From NCBI GenBank assembly GCA_902767375.1, contig CACXGV010000001.1:1080-65079 (forward strand): a stretch of DNA of 64,000 nucleotides. The letters run 5' to 3'. Source of the DNA: an uncultured Erysipelotrichaceae bacterium. Its GTDB lineage: Bacteria; Bacillota_I; Bacilli_A; RF39; UBA660. The translations under genes were made by a program, and so were the position numbers. Positions 28,043 through 49,109 of this stretch are shown here, piece after piece. Each line of letters begins with the position of its first letter. Position 1 is the first letter of the stretch. The notes beneath the pieces are model-generated. The model was not told the DNA's origin, did not search any database, and saw nothing but the letters and a program-made list of their open reading frames with translations.

Positions 28043-28095
28043 CTAATCCCTCCTTGCACTACTAATTATATACTAAAATATGATTTTTTTCCACA

Positions 28096-28809
28096 TTAAT
28101 TATTAGAATTCTTTACTTTACCTAAAACAATTATTACCCCAAATAATAATGTGGCACCCAAAACCATAAAAACGATGTTAATAATACTATTTGATAGTTT
28201 ACTATCCCTTAACTTAGAATATTTACTTGTCTTATCAACTACTATATTAATAGTTTTATTCTCATAATTATTCTTAGTAAAAACCCAAGTATAAGTTTGA
28301 TCATTAACCGCATCAGCATTACTCTCTATTACTTGATAATAAGAAGTAACATTTATTGTTAACTTATCTAAATCAGGATAAGATTTAAATAAAGAATTAC
28401 CTTCTGGATTTCCACTACTAAAACTAAATCTATCCTTACTATTAGTAACACTACGATAATTAAAAGGTAGTAACAGATAAGTCTTTTCATACTTATCCAT
28501 ATCAAATGTATAAGTAAACCTTAATCCATATGCATCACTATTATCAATTTTTTCTTTATTATAATAATTATATCCATCTAATCTAGAAAACAACTCTGGA
28601 TATCCAGGAGTATCAGCATCAACTGCCAAATTAAAATTCTCATAATTATAATCTATCATTGCTTTATTAGTTATTTCACCATATTTTTTATTTAAAGCAT
28701 TAATAACTAATTCATCACTAATTGTTTTCTCATCAATTTTAACATTATAAACCGCTTCACAACCAGATAAAAGAAATACACTTATTATTAATAATAAAAT
28801 CTTTTTCAT
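28096..28809 (-). CDS. lipoprotein with additional C-terminal TM anchor (T4SS-associated)
   Basis: Lipobox LLSGC at residues 13-17; C-terminal IINIVFMVLGATLLFGVIIVLG. Confidence 0.6.
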   Translation of the reverse strand: MKKILLLIISVFLLSGCEAVYNVKIDEKTISDELVINALNKKYGEITNKAMIDYNYENFNLAVDADTPGYPELFSRLDGYNYYNKEKIDNSDAYGLRFTYTFDMDKYEKTYLLLPFNYRSVTNSKDRFSFSSGNPEGNSLFKSYPDLDKLTINVTSYYQVIESNADAVNDQTYTWVFTKNNYENKTINIVVDKTSKYSKLRDSKLSNSIINIVFMVLGATLLFGVIIVLGKVKNSNN

Positions 28810-28810
28810 A

Positions 28811-30676
28811 TTAACAATTCCTATCTATATATCCTTGTAAAGACATAATCTGATAACTACTAGCAGATCCTGGAGTATATTGTCCAAAAACAAGACCCAT
28901 TTGTCCACCAGCTGACTCTAATGTTACCAAATAACCACCTTTATTCTCTACTACTAAAATAACATGACCTTCATTAACTAAAATATCTCCGGGACCAGCT
29001 TCTTGGAAAGAAATCCTTGTTCCAATAGACATAAAACCAGTTGTAATATATCCTCCAATATCTTTTCCCATTGCATTACCTAATGCCCAAGAAACAAATC
29101 CTGAACAGTCAAATCCATAATAATTATAGCAAGTACTTGGACTACAACTGGCACCAACCTGCGATCCATGTTTTGGATTGACTCCCATATAAATAGAGCC
29201 TTCGTGGCCACCACCCCAATAATAAGGTAATCGATAACCTGCTTGATATAAACCATAAGCAAGAGTTACTCCTGCAGCTGCTACTGCCGCCCTTGTACAT
29301 TTTCCTGATGCGTTTACATTTTCCGTAACAGCCGCGTGTAAAGACTCATAGGCATCATCACCTAAAGCTGTTCTAATTGGAGTTGTTAATAAATTTGTAC
29401 CAGCAGTCCCACTAGGATAACTATCTAAAAGATATGGTACTCCCGTATGGAAATGTTCTTTAATATAAGCAAGAACCATTGCATGAATCTTACGATAAGT
29501 AGTATCAGTATAACTAACTCCATCAATTACTTCTGCCCTATTTACCATTCCATATATATCTATAAAATTATCACCAATTTTAGATTTTAACTGGTTATTA
29601 AAAATTTGAACCTTTTGATTAGTAGCACCAGGCACTACCGTTTGACCATCTGCTATAGGCCCCAATCCCAAAAATAAGAAATGAACATCAGAATTACTAC
29701 TAGCCATTGCATTATAAGCATTATAATAACTAGCATAATTATTTAAATCATTTAATCCTAAATTAATAACAACAAATCTAATCTTAACATTTGGATCAGC
29801 TATTTTACTATTTATTTCAGCCCTAGCCGAACCCATAAACCAGTTATAATTACCTTGATCATTATAAATAAAAGTTAAATCATCAGCACTAATAATATGG
29901 CTCATTTCCTTTATACGACTATCTCCAACATATATCATCATACGTTGAATATCCGCCTCAGTAAGCACTCCTGGACCTTGAGTACCTACAGTATCTTTCG
30001 GAGTTGGCTTATAAATATCCTCAGTTAAATCTAAAAGACCACCCAAAGCCGGACCTAAAATAGCAACAAAAAGAATTAAAAAAATAGCACCAAAACCAAA
30101 TATTGAAAAGATAATACTACGAACTAAAATCTTCTTAAGAAAACCTTTTCTCTTTTCCTTCTTTTCCTCTTTTTCTTCTTGTTCAGTTTTAACTTCTTCA
30201 TCTTGAGGAATTTCTTGTGGTGCTTTGCTACCACCTTTACCAGTTACCTTATCTTTAGCCCACTGTTTGCCAGTTTCCTTGGCAAGATCTTTAGCCCCTT
30301 CCTTAGTAAGACTTTCCTTACTTACTCCACCAGCAACTGTATCCGCAGCGTTAATTAAACCAGTATCATTTGCCGTATTAATAACGCCTTGTAATTGTTT
30401 ACCACCTAGCGAATATTTATTAGCTTGAGTAACAGCTTTACCTGCCGTGTTTATTACAGCTTGACCAGTTTTTGTACTAGCAACAATATCAACTGCTTTC
30501 CCACCAGCTTTTCCAAAATAAGCAGTTGCAACAGCTTTACCTGCAACTTTTACTGCTTTAGCATTGGACTCATCGGCATGGGCTTTTTCAGCTGCTTTTT
30601 TTTGTTTTTCTTTTTGCTCTGGACTTAATTCTTCACGAGGCTCAAGTTCATCTTCTCTATCAAACCCATCATCCAT
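28811..30676 (-). CDS. membrane-anchored bifunctional cell-wall hydrolase: SGNH/GDSL-like esterase plus NlpC/P60 endopeptidase
   Basis: Cytoplasmic N-terminus with GKAV repeats, then a TM segment. GDS block YVGDSR and GxND block NLGLND. NlpC/P60 Cys in FDCSGFVSWA and His in GHVILVV. Confidence 0.7.
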   Translation of the reverse strand: MDDGFDREDELEPREELSPEQKEKQKKAAEKAHADESNAKAVKVAGKAVATAYFGKAGGKAVDIVASTKTGQAVINTAGKAVTQANKYSLGGKQLQGVINTANDTGLINAADTVAGGVSKESLTKEGAKDLAKETGKQWAKDKVTGKGGSKAPQEIPQDEEVKTEQEEKEEKKEKRKGFLKKILVRSIIFSIFGFGAIFLILFVAILGPALGGLLDLTEDIYKPTPKDTVGTQGPGVLTEADIQRMMIYVGDSRIKEMSHIISADDLTFIYNDQGNYNWFMGSARAEINSKIADPNVKIRFVVINLGLNDLNNYASYYNAYNAMASSNSDVHFLFLGLGPIADGQTVVPGATNQKVQIFNNQLKSKIGDNFIDIYGMVNRAEVIDGVSYTDTTYRKIHAMVLAYIKEHFHTGVPYLLDSYPSGTAGTNLLTTPIRTALGDDAYESLHAAVTENVNASGKCTRAAVAAAGVTLAYGLYQAGYRLPYYWGGGHEGSIYMGVNPKHGSQVGASCSPSTCYNYYGFDCSGFVSWALGNAMGKDIGGYITTGFMSIGTRISFQEAGPGDILVNEGHVILVVENKGGYLVTLESAGGQMGLVFGQYTPGSASSYQIMSLQGYIDRNC

Positions 30677-30700
30677 AGCTATTACTCCTTTCTAAAAATA

Positions 30701-31180
30701 CTAATAAATTCTAACTTTATAATTCATAATTGAAGATTCAACAAAACCATATTCATTGCCTATTGAATCCATCGCAAAATAAACTCTTTTACCATCTACC
30801 ATTTCATTAGAATAATTTCTAACTGTTGTAGTATAAAAACCTTTCTTTTGTTTTAAAGTATCTAAATAACTTTTAAAACTTTTATAACTATCAAACTTTT
30901 CAATTAAAGTTTCATCATCAAGCATTGTAAATGCTTTTTCTGGATCATTAATTAAAATATCCATAAATTCACTATAATATTTCTTAACAAGTTCTTCATC
31001 GGTAATATACACCGGTATTACTTCATTTACTTCATAATCTTTAAATTCAAAATCCTGTTTTAATACTCTTCCATTACTTCCATCATTTTCTTTAAATATA
31101 AATGATATTATTAATGGAACAAGTATAATAATAAGCCCGATTAAGAGAGGCCTTAAAGAGTTTTTTGAAAGTTCTTCCAT
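30701..31180 (-). CDS. TM-anchored T4SS-associated protein (VirB8-like position; unverified)
   Basis: 159 aa with an N-terminal TM and a ~120-aa soluble domain. TAATG overlap with the upstream gene. Confidence 0.4.
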   Translation of the reverse strand: MEELSKNSLRPLLIGLIIILVPLIISFIFKENDGSNGRVLKQDFEFKDYEVNEVIPVYITDEELVKKYYSEFMDILINDPEKAFTMLDDETLIEKFDSYKSFKSYLDTLKQKKGFYTTTVRNYSNEMVDGKRVYFAMDSIGNEYGFVESSIMNYKVRIY

Positions 31181-31692
31181 TATAATGCCTCCTTAAAATA
31201 CTTACCATCATATGGTTCAACACTAAATAAATTTTTTTTATTATCAATATTAACTATTAAATAATAATCTGAACCACCATCATATTCATTTATAAATTCT
31301 TTTTTCAATAATCCATAAATATAATACTTTGTAATACTTCCATTTTTAGAATAATACATCTTCCTAGCATTAAATGAATATAAATCATCTAATTCACCTA
31401 AATTCTTAATTAGATTACTTTTATTAAGATTATTATTATTAAGATATTGATTATCCACAATTTTCATTAAGTTATCCACATTTTTTTTGCTTAAATTTAA
31501 AATATATCTATTAGCACAACTTTCAACTGTAAAAAAAGTTGATTTTTCACTAACAAGAGCATATGATTCTTTAGTATTTTGCTGTTCTACAGCAAGTTCC
31601 TCTGCATCGCCTTTTCTTATTACAAAGAATAGACCGATAGCTAAAAGGGTGATAATCCCTATTAAAATATAATCTGTTTTATTTAATTTCAT
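31180..31692 (-). CDS. TM-anchored T4SS-associated protein (VirB8-like position; unverified)
   Basis: About 170 aa with an N-terminal TM and a ~130-aa soluble domain. ATG 31692 follows AAAGGTGAT. Confidence 0.4.
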   Translation of the reverse strand: MKLNKTDYILIGIITLLAIGLFFVIRKGDAEELAVEQQNTKESYALVSEKSTFFTVESCANRYILNLSKKNVDNLMKIVDNQYLNNNNLNKSNLIKNLGELDDLYSFNARKMYYSKNGSITKYYIYGLLKKEFINEYDGGSDYYLIVNIDNKKNLFSVEPYDGKYFKEAL

Positions 31693-31707
31693 AATTATCA
31701 CCTTTTT

Positions 31708-33759
31708 CTAATAAGAACCATCATAGATGCCTTGTAAGAAAGTTAAATTACATTCCTTATATCTTCTAGTTTTTAATCCCCCTAAAACAGTACCACTACC
31801 ATCTCTAATATAATAATTGTTCCACCAACTTGAACATAATGATTGAGAATTACCATATCTACTATAAGCTGATAAAAAATCATCCATACGATAACCAGCA
31901 TTATAACAAAGATCTGTAAGAGCATCTATTTGATTTTGACTAAATGAAAGTCCAGCACTGGCAAGTTTTCCACGTACGTATTCAGCCCATTTTTCAACTT
32001 CAACGGCAAACACTTGCTCAACTACTGATTTAGGAATTGTACTACCACAATAATTACTATAAGGTGGACTACCTACTAAAGGATAACCCACACTAGCAAA
32101 TGTAGCTGCATTATGTGTAAGCGTAACCCCAGGTCCAGCCGTTGGAACATCACCTGAATTACAATAAACTACATAACTATCTCCACTAGCTGGTCCTGCT
32201 CCTTCAAATCCAATTAACATTCCAATAAGTTCACCTAAACTAGATAAACTAGAAGGTCTAGGATTATTTGGATCAATATAATCAAGTGGATCTACCGCTG
32301 TAGATTGGCTAGTACCAGTACGCACTTCAAAATGTAAATGGGTTCCTGTACTTACTCCACTAGTTCCCATCTTACCAATTACCTGCCCTTGAACAACTGA
32401 TTCTCCTTCATGAACAGTAATTGAGTTTTCATGCATATGACCATAGAAAGTATATAAACCATCACTATGTTGAATTTGAACGTAATTACCATATCCACCA
32501 CCACAATGGTCTTCTTGATTAGATGTTGAAAAACATCCTGTATTTACTGCTACAACAGTTCCATTTTTTGCCGCAATGATATTGGTATTACCATTACCTC
32601 CAACACCTGCTAAATCAACCCCATAGTGTTTACGTGTAGTCCCATAAACTGGATGAACTCTAACTCCATAATTACTTGTAATTGTAACAGAAACTGGATC
32701 TCCAGCTGCAAAAACTTTCCCATTTTGCTCTGTTACTTCCGCACTACCTATTGGCCACCAATAATTATCATTATTAGAAGCACCTAAATATCCAGGATTA
32801 GTTCTTCCCTTATTGTATTCTTCTAATAATTCCTTAATTTCTTTAACAATTTGTTTTCTAACTTTAACTAAATCTTCCGCATATTTTTCTTTATCTAATT
32901 GATCTAAACTTTCAACCCCAGCCTTTTCTAATACGGCATTATATCTATGCCATAAATGAGGCTTACGATCAAAATAATCACCTTGTTCTAAGAAATCCCA
33001 GTACCCATCAACTAAAACTTTCTTTTGAGCACTTACTGATTCATCTGATACTGTAAAACCTTGTTCATAAGCTTTAGCTTCACAATCAGATTGTTTATGA
33101 GAAAATAAACCAAAGAAAGATTTAACTCCACTGGCAAACTTTTCCCAGAAAGATAATGACTCACTATAAATTAAAGTATAACATTTTCCATCTTCATTTA
33201 ATGAACCTGAATCACATATTGAAGTAGTAACTCCACTTTCATCTGTTACTTCATAAGAATCTTGAATCCCATAACAAGTCTTTTCATATCCAATCATAGC
33301 ATTAATTAATAGCTTTAATGAATCTCTTTCTTGTTCAAAATACTCTGCTGTTGCATTATCTCCATCATCACCATTATCATCAATATTATAAGCATTACTT
33401 CCATCATTAAAAAATGAAAGTTCATACTCAAAGAATATCGTTGCTATAATAATTGAATCTTCTATAAAATAACCTTTTCTTTGTTTACTAGCTAGTATTT
33501 TATATAACTGAGTATAGAATTTTCTTTGTTGTTTAATAATTTTATCAACACATCTATCTCTATCCTCTTCTTTTTCACCCATACAAGCTCTAATCCAATA
33601 ATCTTTTGTTTGCTCTGCAAATTCATCAAAATCAAAATCACTATACTTTTGAATATCTGCATTTACAGGTTTTACCGCAAACGAAAAAACTATTAAAAAG
33701 ATGAATAGTATTTTCATCATCTTATTTAATAATTTATGTTTGTTATTTCTATAATTCAT
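31708..33759 (-). CDS. secreted bifunctional cell-wall hydrolase: M23 peptidase plus GH24 phage-type lysozyme
   Basis: Signal peptide. M23 motifs HYGVDLAG and GTHLHFEVR. C-terminal lysozyme motifs FEGAG, QNQIDALTDLCYNAG and GLKTRRYKE. Confidence 0.8.
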   Translation of the reverse strand: MNYRNNKHKLLNKMMKILFIFLIVFSFAVKPVNADIQKYSDFDFDEFAEQTKDYWIRACMGEKEEDRDRCVDKIIKQQRKFYTQLYKILASKQRKGYFIEDSIIIATIFFEYELSFFNDGSNAYNIDDNGDDGDNATAEYFEQERDSLKLLINAMIGYEKTCYGIQDSYEVTDESGVTTSICDSGSLNEDGKCYTLIYSESLSFWEKFASGVKSFFGLFSHKQSDCEAKAYEQGFTVSDESVSAQKKVLVDGYWDFLEQGDYFDRKPHLWHRYNAVLEKAGVESLDQLDKEKYAEDLVKVRKQIVKEIKELLEEYNKGRTNPGYLGASNNDNYWWPIGSAEVTEQNGKVFAAGDPVSVTITSNYGVRVHPVYGTTRKHYGVDLAGVGGNGNTNIIAAKNGTVVAVNTGCFSTSNQEDHCGGGYGNYVQIQHSDGLYTFYGHMHENSITVHEGESVVQGQVIGKMGTSGVSTGTHLHFEVRTGTSQSTAVDPLDYIDPNNPRPSSLSSLGELIGMLIGFEGAGPASGDSYVVYCNSGDVPTAGPGVTLTHNAATFASVGYPLVGSPPYSNYCGSTIPKSVVEQVFAVEVEKWAEYVRGKLASAGLSFSQNQIDALTDLCYNAGYRMDDFLSAYSRYGNSQSLCSSWWNNYYIRDGSGTVLGGLKTRRYKECNLTFLQGIYDGSY

Positions 33760-33778
33760 AGAAAACCACCTCTAACTA

Positions 33779-35569
33779 CTATAATCCTCCACCAGAACCA
33801 AAAGAGTCTAATTCTTCTGGAGTTAATACAACATTAATTCTCATACGTCTAGATCCACATACAAATAATGCTTCTCCTTGACTATAAGTCTTAATGCTTT
33901 CTTTTTCGTTTTCATTTAAATCTATAAGTCTAGATAAATCTTCTACTGCTTGTTTTCTTAACCCCATTACTAAATAGTAAGAAGCATTATCAAAAATAGC
34001 TTTACCATGAACAAATACATTCTCAGCAGCAAAATCTGTAGGTTGTTGAGTAATAATAATTGTACCTGTATTATACTTACGACTTCTTCTTTGAACTTGA
34101 GCTAAGAATTCCGCTCCTAATTCATTTTTAGCAGATAAAAGTACATGTGCTTCATCCACATACATTACTGTATTAATAGATTTATCTAAGCATAAACCCC
34201 AAGCATATTTCAAAATATTAAAGAAAAGTGCATTACGAATATTTTCATCACTATTCATAAGCTCTCTAATATTAAATACAACAAAATTACTATCAGTTTC
34301 AATTGTAGTATGTCCATTAAAATAATATCTAAGTTCTAAAGTAAATGGTTTAATTCTAAGAGATAATCTTTCCATTACATCTTTTTCTCTAGTAGCTTCA
34401 GGCATAGATAATAATCTACCCTTAATAGTTGAGAAAACATCATCAAATGTTGGATAATCCGCAGATGTAAAAGTACTAAAATCTGTATCAAAATCTATAC
34501 CAAATCTCTTATAAGTTTCTAAACAAACTTCACTAAACATTTGAAGTACATCATCTTCAATAGAAGGATAATAATACTTAATAAATGCTTTTAAACTTTG
34601 AAGTGTTCTAGTTAAAACAGAATGAGCAGCTCCATCCTTAATTTCTTCTTCATCAGCATCAAAAATAACCTCAAGTGGATTAATCATTCCAAAGTCTCCA
34701 CCCTTACCTAAATCGATAAAGTTTCCACCATAATTCTTAACCATATCCTCAAGCTCACCTTCAGGATCGATAGCAATTATCTTACAATTATTTCTAATGT
34801 GAGTACGAAGTAATAACTTAGCAGCAGTTGATTTACCAGAACCGGATGTACCTAAGATAATAATATTTGCATTATTTCTATTAAACTCTTTTCTTGTTTG
34901 ATATAAGAACTGATTAAATAAAACTACTCCACCAGAGAAATCTATACCAAGAAGAGTTGCACTTCCAGGATCTTTTATACTATCAAATACAAAAGGATAC
35001 ATAGCCGCTATAGTTGGACTTGGAATAGGTGTTCCTACTCTCTCTTCAATATCTTGTTTAGGGAAAATAGGAATCATTGATTTAAGAACTTTTTCTTGTT
35101 CAAACATCATTGGAATTCCACGCATTTCCATTGCATCTAAATAATTTCTAACTTGAATCTTTTTACTTTCTAATTCTTCTTTAGTATCTGCTGTAATCAT
35201 AATATGCATTTGAAAATCATATATCTTTGATTGTGTAGCAGCAAGCATTTGAACAAAAGATTCTAAAGATTCATAATCTTGACGTATTCTTTCTTGAATA
35301 GTTCTTTCATGTTCATTTTGATACCTTTGTTTTAAATCAGCAACTTCCTTATCTATCATTCTACTCATTGTAGAAAAATTAATTGGAATATGTTTAACAA
35401 CAACTTTAACCCCTGGAATATTAGTAACATTTGCTAAAAATCCAGGACCTATAACTTTAGGGAAACTAATAATAGTAAGAATAGTAGCATATTTATCACT
35501 AATCATAAAATCATTAATATTAAAGTTAATTCCTTTAGGAGCTATTTCACTTTTAAATGTACTACTCAT
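33779..35569 (-). CDS. VirB4-like T4SS ATPase, C-terminal 596-aa part (split gene)
   Basis: Walker A GTSGSGKST and Walker B VMYVDEAHVLL. Separated from the N-terminal part by a 7-bp tandem duplication. Confidence 0.85.
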   Translation of the reverse strand: MSSTFKSEIAPKGINFNINDFMISDKYATILTIISFPKVIGPGFLANVTNIPGVKVVVKHIPINFSTMSRMIDKEVADLKQRYQNEHERTIQERIRQDYESLESFVQMLAATQSKIYDFQMHIMITADTKEELESKKIQVRNYLDAMEMRGIPMMFEQEKVLKSMIPIFPKQDIEERVGTPIPSPTIAAMYPFVFDSIKDPGSATLLGIDFSGGVVLFNQFLYQTRKEFNRNNANIIILGTSGSGKSTAAKLLLRTHIRNNCKIIAIDPEGELEDMVKNYGGNFIDLGKGGDFGMINPLEVIFDADEEEIKDGAAHSVLTRTLQSLKAFIKYYYPSIEDDVLQMFSEVCLETYKRFGIDFDTDFSTFTSADYPTFDDVFSTIKGRLLSMPEATREKDVMERLSLRIKPFTLELRYYFNGHTTIETDSNFVVFNIRELMNSDENIRNALFFNILKYAWGLCLDKSINTVMYVDEAHVLLSAKNELGAEFLAQVQRRSRKYNTGTIIITQQPTDFAAENVFVHGKAIFDNASYYLVMGLRKQAVEDLSRLIDLNENEKESIKTYSQGEALFVCGSRRMRINVVLTPEELDSFGSGGGL

Positions 35570-36119
35570 TACTCATCACCGTCCCAAACTCATTTGAAGC
35601 ACCGCCATTTAGGAAGTTTTGTAGCAAGAATTTCAAATCATCATCACTTGTTTGTCTACTAACTAGTCCTATTTGTGCTAAATTACTAATTAAATTTTGA
35701 ATTCTCTTTTGACATATTTCTAACTTTTGATGTCTAAACATAATAAAATATTCTGTATCAACAACATTCATAGCTGTCGAAGTAAAACTCTCAGCTTTAG
35801 CAATATCTTGACTAATTAACTTTCTAACAGCCTGAGAAGGTGCTTGATCAAATTGTAATTGTAACTCAGATAAATATAGATTAATATCTACTGGTCTATC
35901 AGCAACCATCAACCAGAACTCATAATCAATTGTGTTATAAAAGCTTCTAAAGTTAAATATAATATTATTTTGAGTTTGCTGATCTAAAATAAAGATATTT
36001 TTTGGCTCAACTTTAATACCAGTAACATACCAATTATTATCTAAAACTATCATTCCATTTTGAATAGCCTTAATTGGTACCCAATCTTCACTATACTTAC
36101 TTTGACTCTTCTTTGCCAT
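35562..36119 (-). CDS. VirB4-like T4SS ATPase, N-terminal 185-aa part (split gene)
   Basis: WVPIKAIQNGMIVLDNNWYVTGIKVEPKNIFILD... resembles N-termini of Firmicutes VirB4 (TcpF / Tn916 Orf16 type). Removing one copy of ATGAGTA fuses it in frame to the 596-aa ORF. Confidence 0.7.
   Translation of the reverse strand: MAKKSQSKYSEDWVPIKAIQNGMIVLDNNWYVTGIKVEPKNIFILDQQTQNNIIFNFRSFYNTIDYEFWLMVADRPVDINLYLSELQLQFDQAPSQAVRKLISQDIAKAESFTSTAMNVVDTEYFIMFRHQKLEICQKRIQNLISNLAQIGLVSRQTSDDDLKFLLQNFLNGGASNEFGTVMSNE
35563..35576 (-). repeat. 7-bp perfect tandem duplication splitting virB4
   Basis: The plus strand reads tactcat tactcat, so the minus strand reads ATGAGTA ATGAGTA. Confidence 0.9.
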
Positions 36120-36426
36120 AGTTTACACACCAACCTTTCCAAAAATATGTTCTTCTATTTGTAAAATATTCATATACTATCTTTATAAGCGTCCTAACAT
36201 TATGGACATTAGGAAGCGGTATAACTAAAAAGGAACAAATAAGTACTGGTGTTAAAATAAATAATATTCCTTTTATTGAAGTAGTATTAAAATTTGCTAG
36301 TATTAATATAAATGTTGCAAGTATTCCACTACCAAATATTATTAAATCTGTTCTATTAAATAAATTTAAATATAACATAGATTTTTTTGAATTGGCTGGA
36401 ATTAAAAACGTATTATTATTCCCCAT
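36097..36426 (-). CDS. small 2-TM protein, VirB3/PrgI/TcpE-like
   Basis: 109 aa with two hydrophobic helices. Lies immediately upstream of, and overlapping, virB4, as in Gram-positive T4SS loci. Confidence 0.5.
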   Translation of the reverse strand: MGNNNTFLIPANSKKSMLYLNLFNRTDLIIFGSGILATFILILANFNTTSIKGILFILTPVLICSFLVIPLPNVHNVRTLIKIVYEYFTNRRTYFWKGWCVNYGKEESK

Positions 36427-36436
36427 TTATTCCTCC

Positions 36437-36856
36437 TTATTTTAATATATCCCTTCTAAAATCAGCTTCAGCTACTCTTTGTAAAGCAATTTTATAATTT
36501 GTATAAAAATCATCTATCTTTCTTGCTTGAACTATCATTCCAAGCCTAGATGCAAAATCACTATTATCCATTAATAGTTTTCTTAATGATGATATTTTTT
36601 CATTAAAGAATCCAGGACTTACCATAGCTACTTTTTCTTTAATGAAATCAAATATTTTTTTATCATAATCATCATTAACTTCTTTAACATACTCATCATA
36701 GAATGGAGAGTCTTTAAATTCTCTTCTTAAATCAATTAAGGCATATTCTCGATAAGTTTCAAACATTTCAATATCATCACTATCATCAGAATAATTAACT
36801 ATTGTTAAAAACTCTCCCACATATGAACTACAAAACTCATATTCTTTAGTTTCCAT
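36437..36856 (-). CDS. hypothetical acidic cytoplasmic protein (T4SS-associated)
   Basis: 139-aa ORF with a TAATG overlap onto the virB6-like gene. Confidence 0.45.
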   Translation of the reverse strand: METKEYEFCSSYVGEFLTIVNYSDDSDDIEMFETYREYALIDLRREFKDSPFYDEYVKEVNDDYDKKIFDFIKEKVAMVSPGFFNEKISSLRKLLMDNSDFASRLGMIVQARKIDDFYTNYKIALQRVAEADFRRDILK

Positions 36857-39735
36857 TATTTGCTACCTCCTTTGCCTTCAGCAGCCTTATCAGCGGCAGC
36901 ATCAATTTTATCAACAAATTTTGCTCTAAACGCACCACGAACTTCCTCTTCTTTGATACCATCTAAGAAGCCGCGGATTTGTTTTAATTCTTCAACTGTA
37001 TATTTTGTACTATCATCCTTAGAACGAACAATTTGACACAATTTATTAAATTCCTCACCCAAATTAAGAGGAACAGGTGATCCATCTGGATTCATAGTAG
37101 TTACTCCAGCTCTTTCTAAAATCCTTCTTTGAGAAGCTTCAGTTAAAGCTGTGAATTCATCACGAAGTTCGCCACTATTAGCAATCATATAAGCACGAAG
37201 ATCATCCTTAACCTTTTCTAAGTTGCCAATAATCTTTTCATCTACTTCACGCTTAGTTCTATCATCAATTTCTTTCTTTTCTTCTTCATATATGGTCTTA
37301 AGTTCAGTTTTGCGTCTTTCTAATTCAGCAAGTTCTTTACCAATATCAGTTTTTTCAAGTTCTTTTTTCTCAGCTTCTAGTACCATAGCCTCACGAGCAC
37401 CAGAATCAATCTCTAACGCAGCTAATTTAGTATCAATGTCATTAATTTTAGCACCAAATTCAGTAGCATTTAATTCATCTCTTCTAACTTTCATTTCAGC
37501 AGTAAACTTAGTTTTTTCCGTTTCTAAATCAGATAATTTAACTTGAGCTGCAGTTATTTGCGAATCGAGTCCTTTAATCTGTAAATCTTTTTTTTCTGCA
37601 GTTAAAGTAGTATCTTTCCCGATTGCGACTTTTTGTGCTTCTAATGCACTAATTTCAGCAGTAATCTTAGATTTATCTACTTCATATCTAGTTCTGAAAT
37701 TTCTAGCATCAGTGCCAATAGCCTCATTAGTTCTTTTCCAAGCTTCAGCTTCAGGTGTGGCCATTAATCTAGATCTTTCAGCATTTAAAGTCGCAGCCTT
37801 TTCAGAAAAAGATTTATATGCCTCGCTACCATAAATCCTACCTAAATCTTCATCAATCTTTCTAAATCTTGTAGCATGCTCTTCATAGCCTTCTTGACTA
37901 CGTATCCTAGTCTCTTCTCTTCTTAAATTTAATCTTTCATTGTTATAGTATTCCGTAAGACTAGCTTTTTCATTTTTAGCACGATCTTTAATTTCTTGAA
38001 CACCTTTTTGAATAGAATCAGAATTAACAATTGGATTAATTTTCTTTCTAAATTTACCGGCTTTATCAGCATTTTCACCTACACTAGTATAATTAATTCG
38101 GTTCCCAAAATAATTTTGTGGTCCGCCCTCTTGAGCAATTGCATCACTAAAATCATCAAATTTAAGTGCAAGCCCTCTTAAACCAGGAACACGATATGCC
38201 ACATTACCTGGATGTTTACTACTTGCTTCAGCAAAACGTTTTCTTTTAGCATCTCGTTTATCTATAGCCTCAAAAGTTTCAGATGAAGATTTCTTTATTT
38301 CTTTACCTAAATTTTTCAAATCTCCTCCGCTATTTTGCCATCCACGGTATCCACCATGTAAAACAGTTCTTGGAAGGTTACCTATTGCACGGCCAGCTTG
38401 TCTCCATCTATCTTTTACTGGTCGAGAAGAATATGTTCCATCAGCATTTCTTTGATTAAAAATATTAAATCCTTCTCTACCTAGATTTCTAGCTGCGGTG
38501 CCAAGTGCACCAATTCCACGTCTTGCATATTCATAATCTTCACCATTAAGTTTTTTGCCAATTCTCCATTCACCCTTAGCAAAACCACCAACAATACTGT
38601 CTAAAAGTTTAGGGGCAGTTTTGGCAAATTGTAAAATACTTATATACATAATTGCTTTAACAATTAATCTTGTTAAAGAAATATTTGATACATAATCTTT
38701 ATCAATCATGTTCCAGAAATGTCCATTATCTCTAATAAAAGACATTGTATATATAGCAAAATAAATAGTTGCAACACGGACAAATACTAACAAATAAGTA
38801 CTTTTAATTTCATTAAACCACTTAGTAAATATACCACCTGTTGGTTTTGTAATTCTTAAAATAATTGGTATTGGAGCAACAATTTCCAATACTGCTAATT
38901 TAACCGCTCTAGCTCCTACATCAAAGGCAAATGATAAGAATAAATATGCCGAAAATAGACCTAAAGCCATTGCCCATAGCCAGTGATATTCCATCGTCCC
39001 ATCAGTAACTGCTTGATTTAGTTCAGGATCTAGGAAGAATAAACTTAAAAATCCATGATCCATTGCTAAATCATATTTTTCAATATAGTGATCACATAGA
39101 GTTTTTAAATCTCCTTCAATTCCTTCTCCTGAACGGCACTCTGCAGGAGTAACGGCAATTTTAACATCCGGATTATCTGGATCTTGAGATACAGGATGAA
39201 AGAAGGTTGAAAATATTGAAACTGCTACTCTAAAACCTGCATCTTTTGTATCAATCTTTCCGTTTTTCTTAAAATCGTTGTGACTATCTTCTTCTGTCGT
39301 ACTACTCATTAAAATAATATTACCAATGATATTAGATTCTAATATACGATTTTCAACTCTATCAATTGTATCATAAATAAAAGGTAAGAGTGCAATTAAT
39401 ACAATTGAAATAACTGTATTCTTAGCAAGGCCCTTTAATGATTTATCATCATTTGCTCCTACTTTATCTGGATCAGCAATTAATCTTAATACACTAATAG
39501 CAAGAACAAATAACATTACAACCCCTAAGACAACGTAAATTCTCTTAGTAATTGCCCCTATTCCATCTGGATCATTAACATCAAAAATTCTAGCTCTTGT
39601 AACAATATAAAAAATACGATACATATAACCAGTAATATTATAAATAAGTGCATTTATAAGTAATGTAATTCCTCTTAAAGTATTTAAGACAAAATCACCT
39701 ATGTTAAATAATTTTAAAGCAACAATATTTGTCAC
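36856..39735 (-). CDS. VirB6-like polytopic membrane protein with long C-terminal coiled coil (TcpH/ConG/PrgH analog)
   Basis: 959 aa. Multiple TM helices in the first ~400 aa, then a charged coiled-coil region. Its position next to the VirB3/VirB4 genes supports the call. Confidence 0.6.
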   Translation of the reverse strand: MTNIVALKLFNIGDFVLNTLRGITLLINALIYNITGYMYRIFYIVTRARIFDVNDPDGIGAITKRIYVVLGVVMLFVLAISVLRLIADPDKVGANDDKSLKGLAKNTVISIVLIALLPFIYDTIDRVENRILESNIIGNIILMSSTTEEDSHNDFKKNGKIDTKDAGFRVAVSIFSTFFHPVSQDPDNPDVKIAVTPAECRSGEGIEGDLKTLCDHYIEKYDLAMDHGFLSLFFLDPELNQAVTDGTMEYHWLWAMALGLFSAYLFLSFAFDVGARAVKLAVLEIVAPIPIILRITKPTGGIFTKWFNEIKSTYLLVFVRVATIYFAIYTMSFIRDNGHFWNMIDKDYVSNISLTRLIVKAIMYISILQFAKTAPKLLDSIVGGFAKGEWRIGKKLNGEDYEYARRGIGALGTAARNLGREGFNIFNQRNADGTYSSRPVKDRWRQAGRAIGNLPRTVLHGGYRGWQNSGGDLKNLGKEIKKSSSETFEAIDKRDAKRKRFAEASSKHPGNVAYRVPGLRGLALKFDDFSDAIAQEGGPQNYFGNRINYTSVGENADKAGKFRKKINPIVNSDSIQKGVQEIKDRAKNEKASLTEYYNNERLNLRREETRIRSQEGYEEHATRFRKIDEDLGRIYGSEAYKSFSEKAATLNAERSRLMATPEAEAWKRTNEAIGTDARNFRTRYEVDKSKITAEISALEAQKVAIGKDTTLTAEKKDLQIKGLDSQITAAQVKLSDLETEKTKFTAEMKVRRDELNATEFGAKINDIDTKLAALEIDSGAREAMVLEAEKKELEKTDIGKELAELERRKTELKTIYEEEKKEIDDRTKREVDEKIIGNLEKVKDDLRAYMIANSGELRDEFTALTEASQRRILERAGVTTMNPDGSPVPLNLGEEFNKLCQIVRSKDDSTKYTVEELKQIRGFLDGIKEEEVRGAFRAKFVDKIDAAADKAAEGKGGSK

Positions 39736-39750
39736 TAAACAGCCTCCTTT

Positions 39751-40647
39751 CTATTGAACGCATGTTGTATAACTTGGATCTATAAATGATAAGAATAAAT
39801 TAATTAATATTGGTAAGAAGAACAATAAAACAATTAAGAATATTCTTGTAAGCAGTCTCTTATTTGCCTTAGTTAAAGCTTCAGCATCTTTATTAGCAAC
39901 AGCCTTTAAATAATCTAAAACCGTAAAGAAACCAACCATAATAGGACCAATAATTCTAATTGCATCCATAGCAGATTGTAAATCTTCACTTATCCCCGCT
40001 AATACTCCATCACAATCTGCTTCAACAGTTTGAAGTGTTGGGTCGTCGGTACTACCATAACCAGACATATTTACTGATTGGGAAACCGAACCATTACTTG
40101 AACGAGTGAATCCTGCAGCTGAAAGACTATAACATGCTCCTGAAGCAGCATCCCAAGCACAAGTATCACTTTTCTTTTTACACTCAGTTTTTTTTAAACT
40201 AGAGCATGTTGAATTATCAGTAGCTTCGGTATTATGACTAGCTCTTTGACTAGGTGTGTCGGCCTTGTTATAGCATTTCTTTGTTACAGTATCAAAAACG
40301 CAATCCGTAACTGAATTACATTTACCCTTATCGGTATACTTTGTACAACTAACATTTTCATCAACTTGTTCTTCTTTAATGCAAACAGCTTCCGCATTAT
40401 AAATATCAAATTTCGCACCAATACCTAAAAAACCAGACTTTGATTTAATCCAGCATTGAGAGGTAATATCGCTTTGTTTTTTAACCTTAGTGCCACACTT
40501 CTTACCTACTTTTTTGTTATAAGATTCATTTACTAAATCACTACTTTGAAGTTCCCATTGTTTACATATTCCAACAGCACTAGCATCTATCTTAAAAAGT
40601 AAAAATATACTAAAAAATAAACATATTGATATTAATATTTTTTTCAT
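39751..40647 (-). CDS. Cys-rich secreted domain fused to a VirB2/TrbC-like 2-TM module
   Basis: ATG 40647 (MKKILISI...) follows GAGGT. About 14 Cys, including repeated C-x4-5-[DT]C-x2-D-x4-5-CY units. The C-terminal 2-TM module (DYLKAVANKDAEALTKANKR between the helices) is paralogous to the 126-aa protein. Confidence 0.55.
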   Translation of the reverse strand: MKKILISICLFFSIFLLFKIDASAVGICKQWELQSSDLVNESYNKKVGKKCGTKVKKQSDITSQCWIKSKSGFLGIGAKFDIYNAEAVCIKEEQVDENVSCTKYTDKGKCNSVTDCVFDTVTKKCYNKADTPSQRASHNTEATDNSTCSSLKKTECKKKSDTCAWDAASGACYSLSAAGFTRSSNGSVSQSVNMSGYGSTDDPTLQTVEADCDGVLAGISEDLQSAMDAIRIIGPIMVGFFTVLDYLKAVANKDAEALTKANKRLLTRIFLIVLLFFLPILINLFLSFIDPSYTTCVQ

Positions 40648-40685
40648 ATTAACTACCTCGAATTTCACACAATTATACATTAAAC

Positions 40686-40694: not shown

Positions 40695-40721
40695 TAAAAA
40701 AAAACAACCTACAAGGTTGTT
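40695..40721 (-). terminator. intrinsic terminator directly after the 126-aa VirB2-like gene
   Basis: AACAACCT / AGGTTGTT 8-bp stem with loop ACA, and a 9-nt U-run on the transcript. Confidence 0.7.
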
Positions 40722-40738
40722 TTCATACATATTTTTAA

Positions 40739-41119
40739 TTATTGAATGCAGCCGTCGGCACCTTTAGTCCAAGGTCTTAAAATGCAAGCTTCACATACAT
40801 TGAAATCCATTGATTCTTCTAGACCGTTTCTTTCAGAACTATAATTACTTACAGCGCCGAAAATAAACATTACGATACTAGGAATAAAGAAAATAACAAT
40901 ACCTGCTATAGCTCTCCACATTAGACTCTTAACAGATTTTTTAATTTCATCGTCTTTAGCTGCAGTAACTGCCTTACCAAAATCAAAAATACCATAAACA
41001 ATAATTAATAATGGAATAGCAATTTTAAATACAGTTAATATCCAACCTACTAATTGAAGGATTCCTGAAGCTTCTGAACAAAAATTACTTACATCAATAC
41101 CATCTAATATAGTAAACAT
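40739..41119 (-). CDS. VirB2/TrbC-like small 2-TM protein (candidate pilin/major subunit)
   Basis: 126 aa with two TM helices flanking DFGKAVTAAKDDEIKKSVKS and a Cys-containing tail. It has its own consensus promoter and its own terminator. Confidence 0.5.
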   Translation of the reverse strand: MFTILDGIDVSNFCSEASGILQLVGWILTVFKIAIPLLIIVYGIFDFGKAVTAAKDDEIKKSVKSLMWRAIAGIVIFFIPSIVMFIFGAVSNYSSERNGLEESMDFNVCEACILRPWTKGADGCIQ

Positions 41120-41173: not shown

Positions 41174-42205
41174 TTATTTGAATAAACCAAATAAACCTCC
41201 ACCGCTCTTAAATTTATCAAAACCTAGTTTAATTAATAACTCATCAACGGCTTTATTTCTACTACTTCTTTCATCGATATTTCCTAAAATATGAAAAACT
41301 TTTAATTTAGTCTCATATTCAAAACTAGGTATATCAGTATCAATCAAAGAACACCTATTAAGTACAATTCTTGCATTATCTCCCATAATTCTAGAATAAT
41401 CCTGATTACTAGTTAATAGTTTAGTTAAACTAACTATCCCGGGCTCCACTAAAAATAATACAAAATCGCATAAATCATTTGCCTTAATAGTATTTAAATC
41501 AATAATCACCGCTTGTTTATCTTTAAATGATTTAATCTTAAATTTCAAATCATCATATGATGTACTTTCACAAATATCTGGATCTCTAAAATATAATGCA
41601 TCTTGGTTAATCATCTCAACCCCTACTGCACTATAATAATTTCTTAACTCTTTAACCATCATATACATCAAACTAGTAGCCCCCGCATGAGGAGTTAAAT
41701 CCTGAATTCCAATAATTATCTGATTAGGATTTTTAACAACTTTATTTTCATTTACATTAGTACTTTTACTAATATCTCCAAACGGATTAAAAGAACTACT
41801 AGTAGTATCTTCTGTTAATGGATTTTGAAAACTATTAACAATAATATACTTTTCTACATCTTTTAAAGTATTAGGATGCGTAGTTAAAAAATTAATACCT
41901 CCGACATTCTTAGTAAAATCATAATATCCATTTTGCACTAACTTAGAAATACATTCCTTAGTAGTATTATTATCTAAAAGTAAGATAACTTTTTCCTTTT
42001 CAAAATAACTTAAAAAATCAAAAAGTATATCAAAATCAGTATAATCTTTAATCGCCGTAATATCTATTATAACTTTACTATAATATAAATTTACTAATTG
42101 ATCATCTAAATCACCCTTGGTAAATTCACCATGTAAAGTTTTAATAACATTAACATCAATTCTATTTAAAAGAGCACTATTTAAATTTTCAATTAATAAA
42201 TTCAC
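41174..42205 (-). CDS. MinD/ParA-fold protein with degenerate P-loop and N-terminal receiver-like domain (TadZ/CpaE-like)
   Basis: IIIGIQDLTPHAGATSLMYMMVKEL sits where the deviant Walker A would be, but there is no Lys. Later FVLFLVEPG and RIVLNRC blocks are typical of the fold. GTG start. Confidence 0.35.
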   Translation of the reverse strand: MNLLIENLNSALLNRIDVNVIKTLHGEFTKGDLDDQLVNLYYSKVIIDITAIKDYTDFDILFDFLSYFEKEKVILLLDNNTTKECISKLVQNGYYDFTKNVGGINFLTTHPNTLKDVEKYIIVNSFQNPLTEDTTSSSFNPFGDISKSTNVNENKVVKNPNQIIIGIQDLTPHAGATSLMYMMVKELRNYYSAVGVEMINQDALYFRDPDICESTSYDDLKFKIKSFKDKQAVIIDLNTIKANDLCDFVLFLVEPGIVSLTKLLTSNQDYSRIMGDNARIVLNRCSLIDTDIPSFEYETKLKVFHILGNIDERSSRNKAVDELLIKLGFDKFKSGGGLFGLFK

Positions 42206-42219
42206 GCCATCATCTTCCT

Positions 42220-42654
42220 CTATAATTTGTCATTTGCAAAATACACTGCTTTACTCTCACCAGTAACAGGGAAAGTAAATAAACTACCAAATATTGGTAA
42301 ATCTAATTTAAAATAAACTGTAACATAATAATAAGTCTTTTTAAATGTTCCTTCACCTTTAGCTTTGGTAGAAACACAATATCTATACTTTTTTTGTCCA
42401 CCAACAAGTTCATCATAACCCTTGGCATCTTTACAGTTACCATAAACAAAATAACCATAACCGTCTAAATACTCACTAATTTCAGTTCTAGCTTTACTAT
42501 TCATACCTTCATTTTGTTCAATAATATTAATAATACCATTCTTAACTCTAAATGCTTTTGAATAGTTTACAGATACAGCTAAATAACCAGAAAAGAGCAC
42601 TATAAATACGATAACTATGGTAAATATCCACGCTCCACCAATTGCTTCTCTCAT
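42220..42654 (-). CDS. pseudopilin/TadE-like membrane-anchored protein
   Basis: MREAIGGAWIFTIVIVFIVLFSGYLAVSVNY: a short charged N-terminus, a Gly, and a ~20-aa hydrophobic helix. Confidence 0.3.
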   Translation of the reverse strand: MREAIGGAWIFTIVIVFIVLFSGYLAVSVNYSKAFRVKNGIINIIEQNEGMNSKARTEISEYLDGYGYFVYGNCKDAKGYDELVGGQKKYRYCVSTKAKGEGTFKKTYYYVTVYFKLDLPIFGSLFTFPVTGESKAVYFANDKL

Positions 42655-42666
42655 CTATAAGACTCC

Positions 42667-42915
42667 TTATTTATTATTTTGATTACATTGAACTGTGCCA
42701 GTTTTTGTACAAGCTTCATCTTCACAGTATTTGCAAGTACACATACCAGTACTAGCATTACAGTTATTACATTCGTAAGCTTGAGAACAATGAGTACTTC
42801 TTAGAATGTTTGCCTTAATTGATGGCCATACTAATGTTGTAAACACCACCCCTATAGCAGCAATTGCTACAACTGCAATAGCAGTCATACTTAATTCTCC
42901 AGATGCTTCTTTCAC
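42667..42915 (-). CDS. Flp-like small pilin candidate with Cys-rich C-terminal knot
   Basis: MKEASGELSMTAIAVVAIAAIGVVF resembles Flp leader/core sequences (ESG..TAI..). The C-terminal 40 aa hold 8 Cys. GTG start 9 nt after AGGAGG. First gene behind a consensus promoter. Confidence 0.35.
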   Translation of the reverse strand: MKEASGELSMTAIAVVAIAAIGVVFTTLVWPSIKANILRSTHCSQAYECNNCNASTGMCTCKYCEDEACTKTGTVQCNQNNK

Positions 42916-42950
42916 TTTTACATTCCTCCTATTCTTATAATCATAATATC

Positions 42951-42979
42951 ATTATACCTCATTAATTTCAATCTATCAA
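42951..42979 (-). promoter_or_regulatory. consensus sigma-A-type promoter of the Flp-like/TadE-like/TadZ-like operon
   Basis: The minus strand reads TTGATA, a 17-nt spacer, then TATAAT, followed by AGGAGG and the GTG start. Confidence 0.6.
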
Positions 42980-44607: not shown

Positions 44608-44624
44608 AAAAAACACCTCTAAGA

Positions 44625-49066: not shown

Positions 49067-49071
49067 AAGAA

Positions 49072-49094: not shown

Positions 49095-49109
49095 ATCTCA
49101 TAATTTTTA

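Follow-up and report, generated by a model that had tools for sequence, protein, structure and literature searches.

A candidate Tad-type pilus operon adjoining a chromosomal type IV secretion gene set in uncultured gut Bacilli

Introduction

An operon that resembles the filament genes of a Tad pilus, and that lies beside a type IV secretion system (T4SS) with no Tad motor in sight, raises the question of which machine it serves. Such an operon occurs in a 64,000-nucleotide stretch of DNA (the window) from an uncultured Erysipelotrichaceae bacterium. A preliminary description assigned its three genes to Flp-like, TadE-like and TadZ/CpaE-like proteins and proposed a hybrid in which a motor-less Tad fibre module is wired to a VirB4/VirB6 machine. 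The tad locus of Bifidobacterium breve has the order tadZ-tadA-tadB-tadC-flp-tadE-tadF. Tad systems, which derive from archaeal Epd-like pili, have short pilins and a pair of platform genes; their TadZ protein, a FleN-type ATPase whose Walker A motif is atypical, acts as a recruiting hub (PMC6668835). Here, we present evidence that the operon probably specifies the filament components of a Tad-type (type IVc/archaeal Epd-like) pilus that is strongly diverged and specific to a lineage of uncultured, low-GC gut Bacilli. We found no description of such a system in the literature.

Results

Operon structure

An ORF check of the window verified three closely packed minus-strand genes encoding proteins of 82, 144 and 343 aa. 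Intergenic gaps measure 12–14 nt, and a Shine-Dalgarno-like sequence occurs at each gene. As reported previously, the genes follow a near-consensus, sigma-70-like promoter (TTGATA-17-TATAAT; 42951..42979, minus strand), which agrees with consensus at 11 of 12 positions and scored highest across the 6 kb scanned. Promoter-like sites show no enrichment in the AT-rich DNA here (34 observed versus 40 expected), and the operon promoter is called from its consensus match only. A terminator-like hairpin of the gene upstream of the operon lies at 43017-42996, and another (40700..40724, minus strand) probably marks the end of a four-gene unit. The trio are genuine genes rather than chance ORFs, because the 343-aa and 144-aa proteins have many homologues.

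Properties of the three proteins

The 82-aa protein (42667..42915, minus strand; GTG start) is a candidate Flp-like major pilin. Its N-terminus, MKEASGELSMTAIAVVAIAAIGVVF, begins with a polar six-residue leader (MKEASG) that is followed by a hydrophobic helix of ~22 residues and a variable Cys-rich tail containing 8 Cys. Homologues span 55-97 aa. M1, A4 and T11 do not vary among 27 of them, and conservation reaches 90% or more at K2, G6 and E7. The start of the protein (MKEASG-ELSMTAIAV) places Glu at +1 instead of +5, an arrangement conserved across homologues, and the Flp processing motif G/xxxxEY is absent from the protein and its homologues, none of which has the EY pair. In Pfam searches neither the protein nor the 27 homologues matched Flp (PF04964) at E≤1, and the family profile matched no pilin in the PDB. 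The commonest weak Pfam match was to archaeal Pilin_N (PF07790), seen in 4 of 27 members at a best E value of 0.0032, under family thresholds. In relatives, homologues are short proteins with an N-terminal hydrophobic helix encoded directly 3' of a TadC-like gene; the gene is not TadC-adjacent in this window.

The 144-aa protein (42220..42654, minus strand) occupies the TadE/TadF position and is a candidate minor pilin or pseudopilin, with an N-terminus of MREAIGG plus a hydrophobic helix. It has more than 242 homologues, and M1, G6, G7 and W9 are invariant in the family alignment. Its predicted structure (pLDDT 83.7) consists of helices at residues 3-48 and 53-66, then four antiparallel strands, a possibly pilin-like modeled topology in which a long N-terminal helix leads into a four-stranded sheet. 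A Foldseek comparison of the model with the PDB gave nothing significant (best E value 0.14). TadE (PF07811) and other Tad profiles matched neither the protein nor 44 homologues, and a PDB sequence-profile search with the family found nothing. An N-terminal motif of M-K/R-E-A/S-x-G preceding a hydrophobic helix is common to the 82-aa and 144-aa families, and a 144-aa-type gene sits after the Flp-like gene at all loci, often as two paralogues.

The 343-aa protein (41174..42205, minus strand; GTG start) is a candidate TadZ/CpaE-like, two-domain pseudo-ATPase. Its model (pLDDT 85.8) has an alpha/beta N-domain (residues 1-120) of alternating strand and helix elements, a disordered linker (125-153) and a C-domain (160-335) with a ParA/MinD fold. 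Foldseek matched the model to BcsQ (E value 2.4e-5), ParA, MinD and FlhG, over a range of 2e-5 to 3e-3; TadZ (3FKQ) was not among the best 50 fold matches. The P-loop reads TPHAGATS, without either Walker A lysine. The family-wide motif, xNxTxHAG[AS]T[TS]L, likewise contains neither lysine, including where motor genes adjoin. No sequence-profile link to ParA, CbiA, AAA_31 or CpaE was detected for the protein or its homologues with Pfam, NCBIfam or PDB profiles. Homologues numbered 118 among the matches listed, and the family profile recovered just 587 relatives among 1.84 billion representatives, so the 343-aa proteins form a closed family.

Overall, the sequence features in the preliminary description were confirmed: the Flp-resembling N-terminus lacking EY and the 8-Cys tail, the MREAIGG start with its hydrophobic helix, and the degenerate, lysine-less Walker A (PHAGATS), which proved to be conserved family-wide. 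The names given to the proteins fared less well. A proposed search for profile relations to Flp, TadE and CpaE/TadZ returned no match when the trio were run against Pfam and NCBIfam and 27-45 homologues of each against Pfam, and PDB sequence-profile searches with five alignments yielded nothing relevant. An Flp-like identity for the 82-aa protein agrees with its length, helix and position after a TadC-like gene in relatives, but not with the missing EY and Flp profile match. TadE-like is consistent with the position, pilin-type N-terminus and modeled topology of the 144-aa protein, but found no counterpart in TadE profiles or significant Foldseek matches. TadZ/CpaE-like agrees with the two-domain model, ParA/MinD fold and Tad synteny of the 343-aa protein, but not with the lack of a ParA/CpaE profile link.

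The fourth gene and the adjoining T4SS

The fourth gene of the unit (40739..41119, minus strand) encodes a 126-aa, two-TM, T4SS_pilin-like protein (PF18895, E value 0.0035; Mbov_0395 pilin-like, E value 0.0031). It comes after the TadZ-like gene in all four types of locus described below and is always conserved along with the trio. Profile matches define an adjacent chromosomal T4SS gene set (25727..40680, minus strand). All on the minus strand, it includes a Cys-rich 309-aa protein, a VirB6/TrbL-like protein (36856-39735), a split VirB4 of the Mbov_0397 family (35562-36119 plus 33779-35569; E value 4.7e-102), an M23 hydrolase (31708-33759) and a VirD4 of the CD1115 family (25727-28042; 300 bits), together with small proteins and an NlpC/P60 protein.

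What the preliminary description called a T4SS island is a chromosomal locus kept throughout the lineage and does not look like the component set of an integrative and conjugative element (ICE). In many species the locus follows dnaB-dnaI at an unchanged position, and VirB4 identity (83-92%) tracks housekeeping divergence. ORF profile scans of the window matched no relaxase or integrase. Identity as an ICE was rejected. Megablast of 10 kb against a plasmid database also gave no match; thus, the locus is not a known plasmid or ICE.

Gene order in relatives

Species-representative genomes contain 503 loci with a TadZ-like relative. The trio directly follow genes for a CpaB/RcpC-like protein, a CpaF/TadA-like ATPase and two polytopic membrane proteins in about half of inspectable loci. 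Four arrangements were distinguished among species loci with enough sequence on both sides. Fifteen have the order DUF5411-CpaB-TadA-TadB-TadC-Flp-TadE-TadZ-pilin126-T4SS, 8 have these Tad genes but lack a T4SS within 10 kb, 12 are of the window type, and 6 carry the trio with neither T4SS nor TadABC nearby. In metagenome TadA loci with room downstream, TadZ was downstream in 39 of 47.

The ATPase of relatives matches T2SSE (E value 1e-27), and its best solved relative is CpaF (8e-17), which outranks FlaI and VirB11; FlaI and archaeal GspE come close behind it. Identification of this ATPase as VirB11 was rejected: CpaF is the better match, and CpaB/RcpC-like and pilin-like genes accompany the ATPase even without a T4SS. 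The CpaB/RcpC-like component, seen in relatives only, is conserved across loci and in one of them (L003) matched RcpC (PF16976) above cut-off (7.7e-7). At the TadB/TadC position, relatives encode two polytopic membrane proteins. Neither of these putative platform proteins matched T2SSF in profile searches, and they are not detectable paralogues, since hhalign gave a probability of 3%. Collectively, synteny in relatives, structure models and the shared N-terminal motif support membership of the trio in a Tad-type (type IV filament) system.

The same gene orders bear on whether the trio belong to a pilus at all. They could instead be bitopic membrane components and a ParA-like (VirC1-like) recruitment factor of a Gram-positive-type T4SS, with the Tad genes as mere neighbors. 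Flp and TadE profiles and pilin folds go unmatched, as this reading would have it; 34 of 50 loci have a T4SS 3' of the TadZ-like gene, and one genome (L013) has a second TadZ-like paralogue following VirD4. VirC1 is itself a ParA-like protein and a known T4SS accessory factor. We nonetheless consider this explanation unlikely, for in the 8 T4SS-less species loci and many metagenome loci the trio immediately follow TadC, and no T4SS occurs within 10 kb. A T2SSE ATPase requires pilin substrates, and the trio are the sole pilin-like genes in those clusters. Furthermore, a conserved short leader ending in Gly plus a hydrophobic helix, present in two otherwise unrelated families, is a hallmark of class III signal peptides.

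The motor genes and the left edge of the window

As the preliminary description reported, the window seems to hold no Tad ATPase, platform or prepilin peptidase: profiles for a T2SSE/TadA-type ATPase, T2SSF platform and A24 prepilin peptidase matched none of the window ORFs scanned. The scan covered nearly all ORFs of at least 90 aa, minus three near the left edge (listed as no Pfam hit, Metallophos and FtsW/RodA). The gene that runs off that edge (3..2231, minus strand) encodes a giant secreted Cys-rich protein; the window contains its 5' part, 743 codons or more, and in relatives the Tad motor cluster begins with this gene. A contig of the same species (L169; 99.87% DNA identity to the window) completes the giant protein, which has 1067 aa and 27 Cys, and the next gene encodes a DUF5411-family protein. 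Contigs with exact copies of the 240-aa and 337-aa proteins stop within the giant gene or DUF5411, and the 42-aa DUF5411 N-terminus, used as query, returned only N-terminal fragments at contig ends.

Relatives indicate what may follow. Two (L095 and L096) have the order ftsW-metallophos-240aa-giant-DUF5411-CpaB-TadA-TadB-TadC; in these and three more (L100, L106 and L163), DUF5411 is followed by CpaB-TadA-TadB-TadC without pilins. A motor cluster without pilins is also carried by L112, whose housekeeping proteins are 70-81% identical to those of the window, and by L102 (DnaB/DnaI 65%). Window-type relatives span the same identity range as these two. DUF5411 is no guarantee of a motor downstream, because L014 and L016 have Flp-TadE-TadZ directly after the giant gene and DUF5411, without CpaB/TadABC. 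Gene order makes it most likely that the motor of this organism is encoded just past the left edge of the window; good evidence that T4SS ATPases drive the pilus is therefore lacking.

The hybrid originally envisaged must be weighed against this result. It would require that the clade lost the Tad ATPase and platform, that VirB4/VirB6/VirD4 assembles or uses the Flp-like and TadE-like proteins, and that the TadZ-like protein docks on those ATPases. Consistent with such a loss, a T2SSE ATPase is absent from the scanned ORFs of the 64-kb window, and TadABC is absent within 10 kb in 12 of 12 window-type species loci, where pilin and TadZ-like genes are intact and conserved. The trio of split genomes remain with the T4SS_pilin gene and T4SS, and L014 and L016 demonstrate that CpaB-TadABC can be missing between DUF5411 and Flp. 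Yet the window cuts the first gene of the motor cluster, and the first two genes of that cluster are present at and just beyond its edge, as the continuation of L169 into DUF5411 reveals. Relatives of equal evolutionary distance, including L112, L102 and L095/L096, keep CpaB-TadA-TadB-TadC at a separate locus. TadA is under strong constraint, being 65-79% identical across species. Finally, six species loci hold the trio with neither T4SS nor TadABC nearby, so adjacency does not define the partner of the trio. We judge a motor-less hybrid to be quite improbable.

Decay of the genes into non-functional remnants of a Tad locus, as might be suggested by the non-adjacent motor genes of the window's clade and the degenerate Walker A of the 343-aa protein, is very hard to credit given intact ORFs, motifs invariant over hundreds of species (all window-type loci included), a P-loop that is degenerate family-wide even beside motor genes, and the strong promoter-like site and ribosome-binding sites.

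Discussion

In the diverged Tad-type pilus that we favor, the 82-aa protein would be the major pilin, made with a cleavable six-residue leader whose last residue is Gly; its hydrophobic helix would serve in assembly, and its variable, Cys-rich tail would face outward from the fiber. The 144-aa protein, with an N-terminus of the same kind, would serve as a minor or initiating pilin. The 343-aa protein, with its putative receiver-like domain and lysine-less ParA/MinD-fold domain, is predicted to be a TadZ/CpaE-like scaffold that positions or nucleates the machine. Because both Walker A lysines are lost, the modeled protein probably binds partners, and perhaps nucleotide, without ATP hydrolysis. 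The putative motor would comprise the CpaF/TadA-like ATPase, two polytopic membrane proteins, the CpaB/RcpC-like protein, DUF5411 and the giant Cys-rich protein, a candidate adhesin. Ancestrally, motor genes were presumably directly upstream of the pilus genes, from which they have become separated in the window's clade; here the same strand most probably carries the motor ~40 kb downstream, from window position 2231 leftward past the edge. The pilus genes also appear to have been ancestrally contiguous with the chromosomal T4SS, in which no relaxase was seen, and the pilus probably provides this T4SS with cell contact rather than being assembled by it.

Resemblance to Tad/Flp (type IVc) pili of monoderms extends to gene order in relatives (ATPase, two membrane proteins, short pilins and one or two larger pilin-like proteins), a CpaB/RcpC-like protein, a two-domain ParA/MinD-type protein, short major pilins (55-97 aa here) and the lack of a secretin. 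In contrast to those pili, the pilins, platform proteins and TadZ-like protein here have no profile-level similarity, and the six-residue leader (MKEAxG) is followed by Glu at +1 without an EY pair. The TadZ-like gene comes last, at the 3' end of the cluster, and its product has lost both Walker A lysines. DUF5411, the giant Cys-rich protein and a T4SS_pilin-like protein are extra, and the cluster is split between two loci in the window's clade. With TadZ/CpaE (PMC6668835), the 343-aa protein shares a predicted alpha/beta, perhaps receiver-like N-domain, a ParA/MinD-fold domain, an atypical P-loop and a Tad-type cluster. It differs in having no HMM link to ParA/CbiA/CpaE, in being encoded beside pilins instead of the ATPase, and in a P-loop (T-P-H-A-G-A-T-S) with neither lysine, whereas TadZ retains ATP binding.

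Archaeal Epd-like and type IV pili with class III signal peptides also invite comparison. Very short pilins, a short leader, the weak PF07790 matches and the proximity of FlaI and archaeal GspE behind CpaF as ATPase relatives are points in common; the bacterial host, the CpaB/RcpC-like protein and Pilin_N matches below family thresholds are not. The thin pilus of IncI plasmid R64 (PMC12102498) is another case of type IV filament genes physically linked to a T4SS, plausibly for cell-cell contact during transfer. R64-type pili are type IVb and reside on mobile elements of diderm bacteria, unlike the Tad-like system here, which accompanies a chromosomal, vertically inherited T4SS of Mollicutes-ICE type with no relaxase found. 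Closer in this respect is the chromosomal, relaxase-less, monoderm-type T4SS of Patescibacteria (PMC12102498), which likewise combines VirB4/VirB6/VirD4 and T4SS_pilin (PF18895)-like genes with a reduced genome and no detectable relaxase, albeit in a different phylum from the window organism. Tad has no mention in that study (0 occurrences).

More speculatively, the Tad-like pilus and relaxase-less chromosomal T4SS might constitute one co-evolving apparatus, used for example in contact-dependent exchange of DNA or protein. The lysine-less TadZ-like protein, whose gene always accompanies the pilin and T4SS_pilin genes and not the TadA-like ATPase, could then be an adaptor between the fiber and VirB4/VirD4, and T4SS ATPases could take over where TadABC is truly lost. 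We offer this only tentatively and think it has a limited chance of being correct.

If the favored reading is right, a Tad-type pilus system would be spread throughout an entire lineage of uncultured gut Bacilli with small genomes (503 species-representative loci), one so diverged that standard profiles see only the ATPase and the CpaB-like protein. The pilins of the lineage have an unusual MKEAxG leader and hypervariable Cys-rich tails. In about half of inspected genomes, the pilus genes run head to tail into a chromosomal T4SS for which no relaxase was detected. The genes are testable candidates for attachment to, or exchange with, hosts or neighbors by uncultivated organisms, and they provide new families for annotating pilin, minor pilin and TadZ-like proteins. 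The locus also carries a caution on method, as a component missing from the window is here most likely an edge effect. Counting against the favored reading, the TadZ-like gene of split genomes remains beside the pilin and T4SS_pilin genes, away from the ATPase, in contrast to canonical tad loci.

A pilin-like operon

Three co-directional minus-strand genes, separated by gaps of 12-14 nt and each preceded by a ribosome-binding site, encode proteins of 82 aa (42915-42667, GTG start), 144 aa (42654-42220) and 343 aa (42205-41174, GTG start). The promoter-like TTGATA-17-TATAAT on the same strand (42979-42951), the best consensus match of the region, is preceded by a terminator-like hairpin of the upstream gene. 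The operon, promoter, N-termini, eight Cys and PHAGATS motif reported in the preliminary description are all present in the window sequence. A fourth gene of the same conserved unit encodes a T4SS_pilin-like protein of 126 aa (40739-41119, minus strand), with a terminator-like hairpin 3' of it. The 64-kb window has a GC content of about 29% and carries all its genes on the minus strand. Between dnaI and the operon, in a slot that varies among relatives, are genes for a 534-aa surface protein (43012-44616, minus strand) with three cadherin-like repeats, a C-terminal transmembrane anchor ending YDYE and a weak archaeal-flagellin-domain match (E 1.3e-8), and, adjoining it, a 76-aa protein with a similar anchor (44625-44855, minus strand); homologues occur in the related locus L102.

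The three proteins are best read as parts of a strongly diverged Tad-type pilus, namely its major pilin, a minor pilin and a TadZ-like scaffold. The earlier assignment to Flp, TadE and TadZ is right in kind but fails as formal membership, on profile tests, the lack of an EY motif and gene position. Pfam and NCBIfam searches gave no Flp, TadE, CpaE or ParA match for the three proteins or for 45, 44 and 27 homologues of the respective families scanned singly, and family profiles run against PDB sequences returned nothing relevant. The profile of the 343-aa family retrieved only 587 proteins among 1.84 billion representatives, and it is a closed family, without HMM link to the huge ParA/MinD superfamily. 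Its predicted model (pLDDT 85.8) has an N-domain of alpha/beta type, joined by a disordered linker to a C-domain whose top structural matches in Foldseek are BcsQ, ParA, MinD and FlhG. The family motif xNxTxHAG[AS]T[TS]L lines up with the deviant Walker A, with both lysines absent. In the 144-aa model (pLDDT 83.7), an N-terminal helix of 46 residues and a second, short helix precede an antiparallel sheet of four strands, a predicted topology that is pilin-like; Foldseek returned no significant match for it. The commonest weak Pfam match of the small-protein family is the archaeal type IV pilin N-terminus (4/27 members, best E 0.0032).

Across all loci, the small proteins start MKEA[TSA]GE[LA] and the TadE-like proteins M[RK]E[AS]IG[GST]. 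Gly occupies position 6 in 92/99 small and 101/107 large proteins, selected with a pattern that constrained positions 1-6 only loosely, and the same invariants recur in two independent family alignments (A2 and A6). In both families, otherwise unrelated, about 20 hydrophobic residues come after a short, polar leader that ends in Gly. Judged from these sequences, the shared N-terminus looks like a common, putative prepilin-type processing signal; it differs from the Flp motif G/xxxxEY. DUF5411 (PF17424), a family otherwise uncharacterized and with a single passing mention in the literature searched, starts MKESLWGYW or MKSSYWGYL before a hydrophobic helix (L001 4330-4740, L003 3090-3599, L169 4304-4429); because this N-terminus resembles the pilin-like ones, DUF5411 may be a further minor pilin.

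Gene order in relatives

Homologues of the 343-aa protein were found at 503 places in species-representative genomes, recorded as uncultured Bacilli, Tenericutes, Mollicutes or Erysipelotrichaceae MAGs from guts. Eighty of these loci were fetched and reference proteins mapped onto them; arrangements were counted only where enough sequence lay on both sides (41 species loci inspected in full). Fifteen of these have a Tad-like cluster that runs directly, and in the same direction, into a chromosomal T4SS in which no relaxase was seen; the order is DUF5411, CpaB/RcpC-like protein, T2SSE ATPase, two polytopic membrane proteins, one to three Flp-like proteins, one or two TadE-like proteins, TadZ-like protein, T4SS_pilin-like protein and VirB6 through VirB4. 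Eight loci carry these Tad genes and lack a T4SS within 10 kb, 12 have the window's arrangement of trio plus T4SS without motor genes, and six have only the trio and the T4SS_pilin-like gene. The relatives' ATPase matches T2SSE (E 1e-27); of solved proteins, the Tad motor CpaF comes closest to it (E 8e-17), with FlaI and VirB11 behind. The match of the CpaB-like protein is to RcpC (E 7.7e-7). Neither of the membrane proteins in the TadB/TadC position showed detectable similarity to T2SSF. In split clusters, the pilins and TadZ-like gene stay with the T4SS_pilin gene, often with the T4SS, and not with the ATPase. Unlike in the usual Tad arrangement, the TadZ-like gene follows the pilins and is not next to the ATPase. 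One genome has two TadZ-like paralogues on the same contig, CACZRB010000064.1 (L013 10001-10954 and L006 961-1968): one belongs to the usual operon, and the other, which shares 44% identity with the window's protein, comes after VirD4 where the T4SS cluster ends. In one genome, the TadZ-like gene is followed 5 kb downstream by a different T2SSE ATPase (L055 15239-16378) that shares only 30% identity with the TadA-like family.

Probable location of the motor

The preliminary description proposed a fibre module lacking its own motor and wired to VirB4/VirB6. This proposal rests on the window edge and is not supported. An open-ended ORF of at least 743 codons (3-2231, minus strand, start at 2231) runs off the left edge and encodes a signal peptide and many Cys, matching the giant protein of L095. 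Contig L169, which shares 99.87% identity with the window across 3 kb, contains the complete gene (1086-4289; 1067 aa, 27 Cys), and the first 42 residues of the next gene are DUF5411. The closest DUF5411 N-termini (L106, 88%; L163, 83%; L095, L096 and L100, 81%) all have CpaB-TadA-TadB-TadC downstream. In relatives the giant secreted protein (995-1290 aa, without Pfam domain) heads the Tad motor cluster; it may be a pilus-associated adhesin.

Split motor loci have the same flanks as the window. Upstream of giant protein-DUF5411-CpaB-TadA-TadB-TadC, L095, L096, L100 and L103 carry homologues of window genes 2225-2947 and 4144-5157 (FtsW-like; 53-55% identity, L095 and L096 only). L112 has rlmN-prpC-prkC-rsgA-rpe (70-81% identity to the window for the first four genes) and then CpaB-TadA-TadB-TadC without pilins; in L102 the same motor genes follow dnaB-dnaI (65% identity) and homologues of the window's 534-aa surface protein. 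These identities fall within the range of window-type relatives. TadA is 65-79% identical across species, and a TadA scan of metagenome contigs yielded 80 loci; among the 47 with room downstream, 39 have TadZ there and eight, the split motor loci, do not. Every contig found for the window's species ends at the giant gene or DUF5411, so motor genes were read in relatives only. These contigs break repeatedly inside the giant gene or shortly past its end, suggesting sequence that is repetitive or varies between strains. As a counter-example, L014 (5407-11501) and L016 have giant protein-DUF5411 directly before Flp-TadE-TadZ-T4SS_pilin and lack CpaB/TadABC as well as any T4SS within 10 kb, an arrangement that may reflect genuine motor loss or further rearrangement. 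In the window genome, the ATPase and its partners are likely to be encoded in the first 6-8 kb past the left edge. A 189-aa protein after VirD4 in the window (25089-25658, minus strand) has a weak camelysin/TasA-like match; in split motor loci its homologues immediately precede CpaB (L096 7805-8347; L112 7632-9053), and it may thus be another fibre-related component.

The adjacent chromosomal T4SS

T4SS genes extend from 40680 to 25727 on the minus strand and encode VirB6/TrbL-like, split VirB4, M23 and NlpC/P60 hydrolase and CD1115-type VirD4 proteins. VirB4 is divided into a 185-aa N-terminal, TraC-like ORF (35562-36119) and a 596-aa ATPase ORF (33779-35569) overlapping by 8 nt (both minus strand), a split kept in all relatives; its best family match is the Mycoplasma ICE VirB4 (Mbov_0397). 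The C-terminus of a secreted Cys-rich 309-aa protein (39751-40680, minus strand) resembles T4SS_pilin (E 0.099), and from this similarity the protein would in effect be a T4SS-pilin-like anchor bearing a large Cys-rich ectodomain.

The locus is flanked by RNase J, ssb, sufB and dnaB-dnaI on one side and by rmuC, ftsEX-pcsB, fmt, rlmN, prpC/prkC, rsgA and rpe on the other. Related species (L004, L005, L009 and others) carry the same T4SS genes at the same site after dnaB-dnaI, and VirB4 identity (83-92%, versus 61-79% for DnaB) tracks housekeeping divergence. The locus is therefore vertically inherited and chromosomal. With these flanks, this fixed site and no relaxase or integrase found in 64 kb, the earlier label of T4SS island, if taken to mean a mobile one, does not hold.

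What remains unusual is a Tad-like cluster joined to a chromosomal T4SS showing no relaxase. Type IV pili serving conjugation are known on plasmids such as R64 (PMC12102498), and the window's T4SS resembles the relaxase-less chromosomal monoderm-type T4SS described in Patescibacteria (PMC12102498). A literature search yielded no account of a Tad-like system paired with a T4SS in Bacilli. Between dnaB and RNase J lies a run of large surface proteins (47279-54076, minus strand), including DUF285/BspA-like repeats, a papain-like protease with lectin-like and Big_2 domains, and a SpaA-fold protein.
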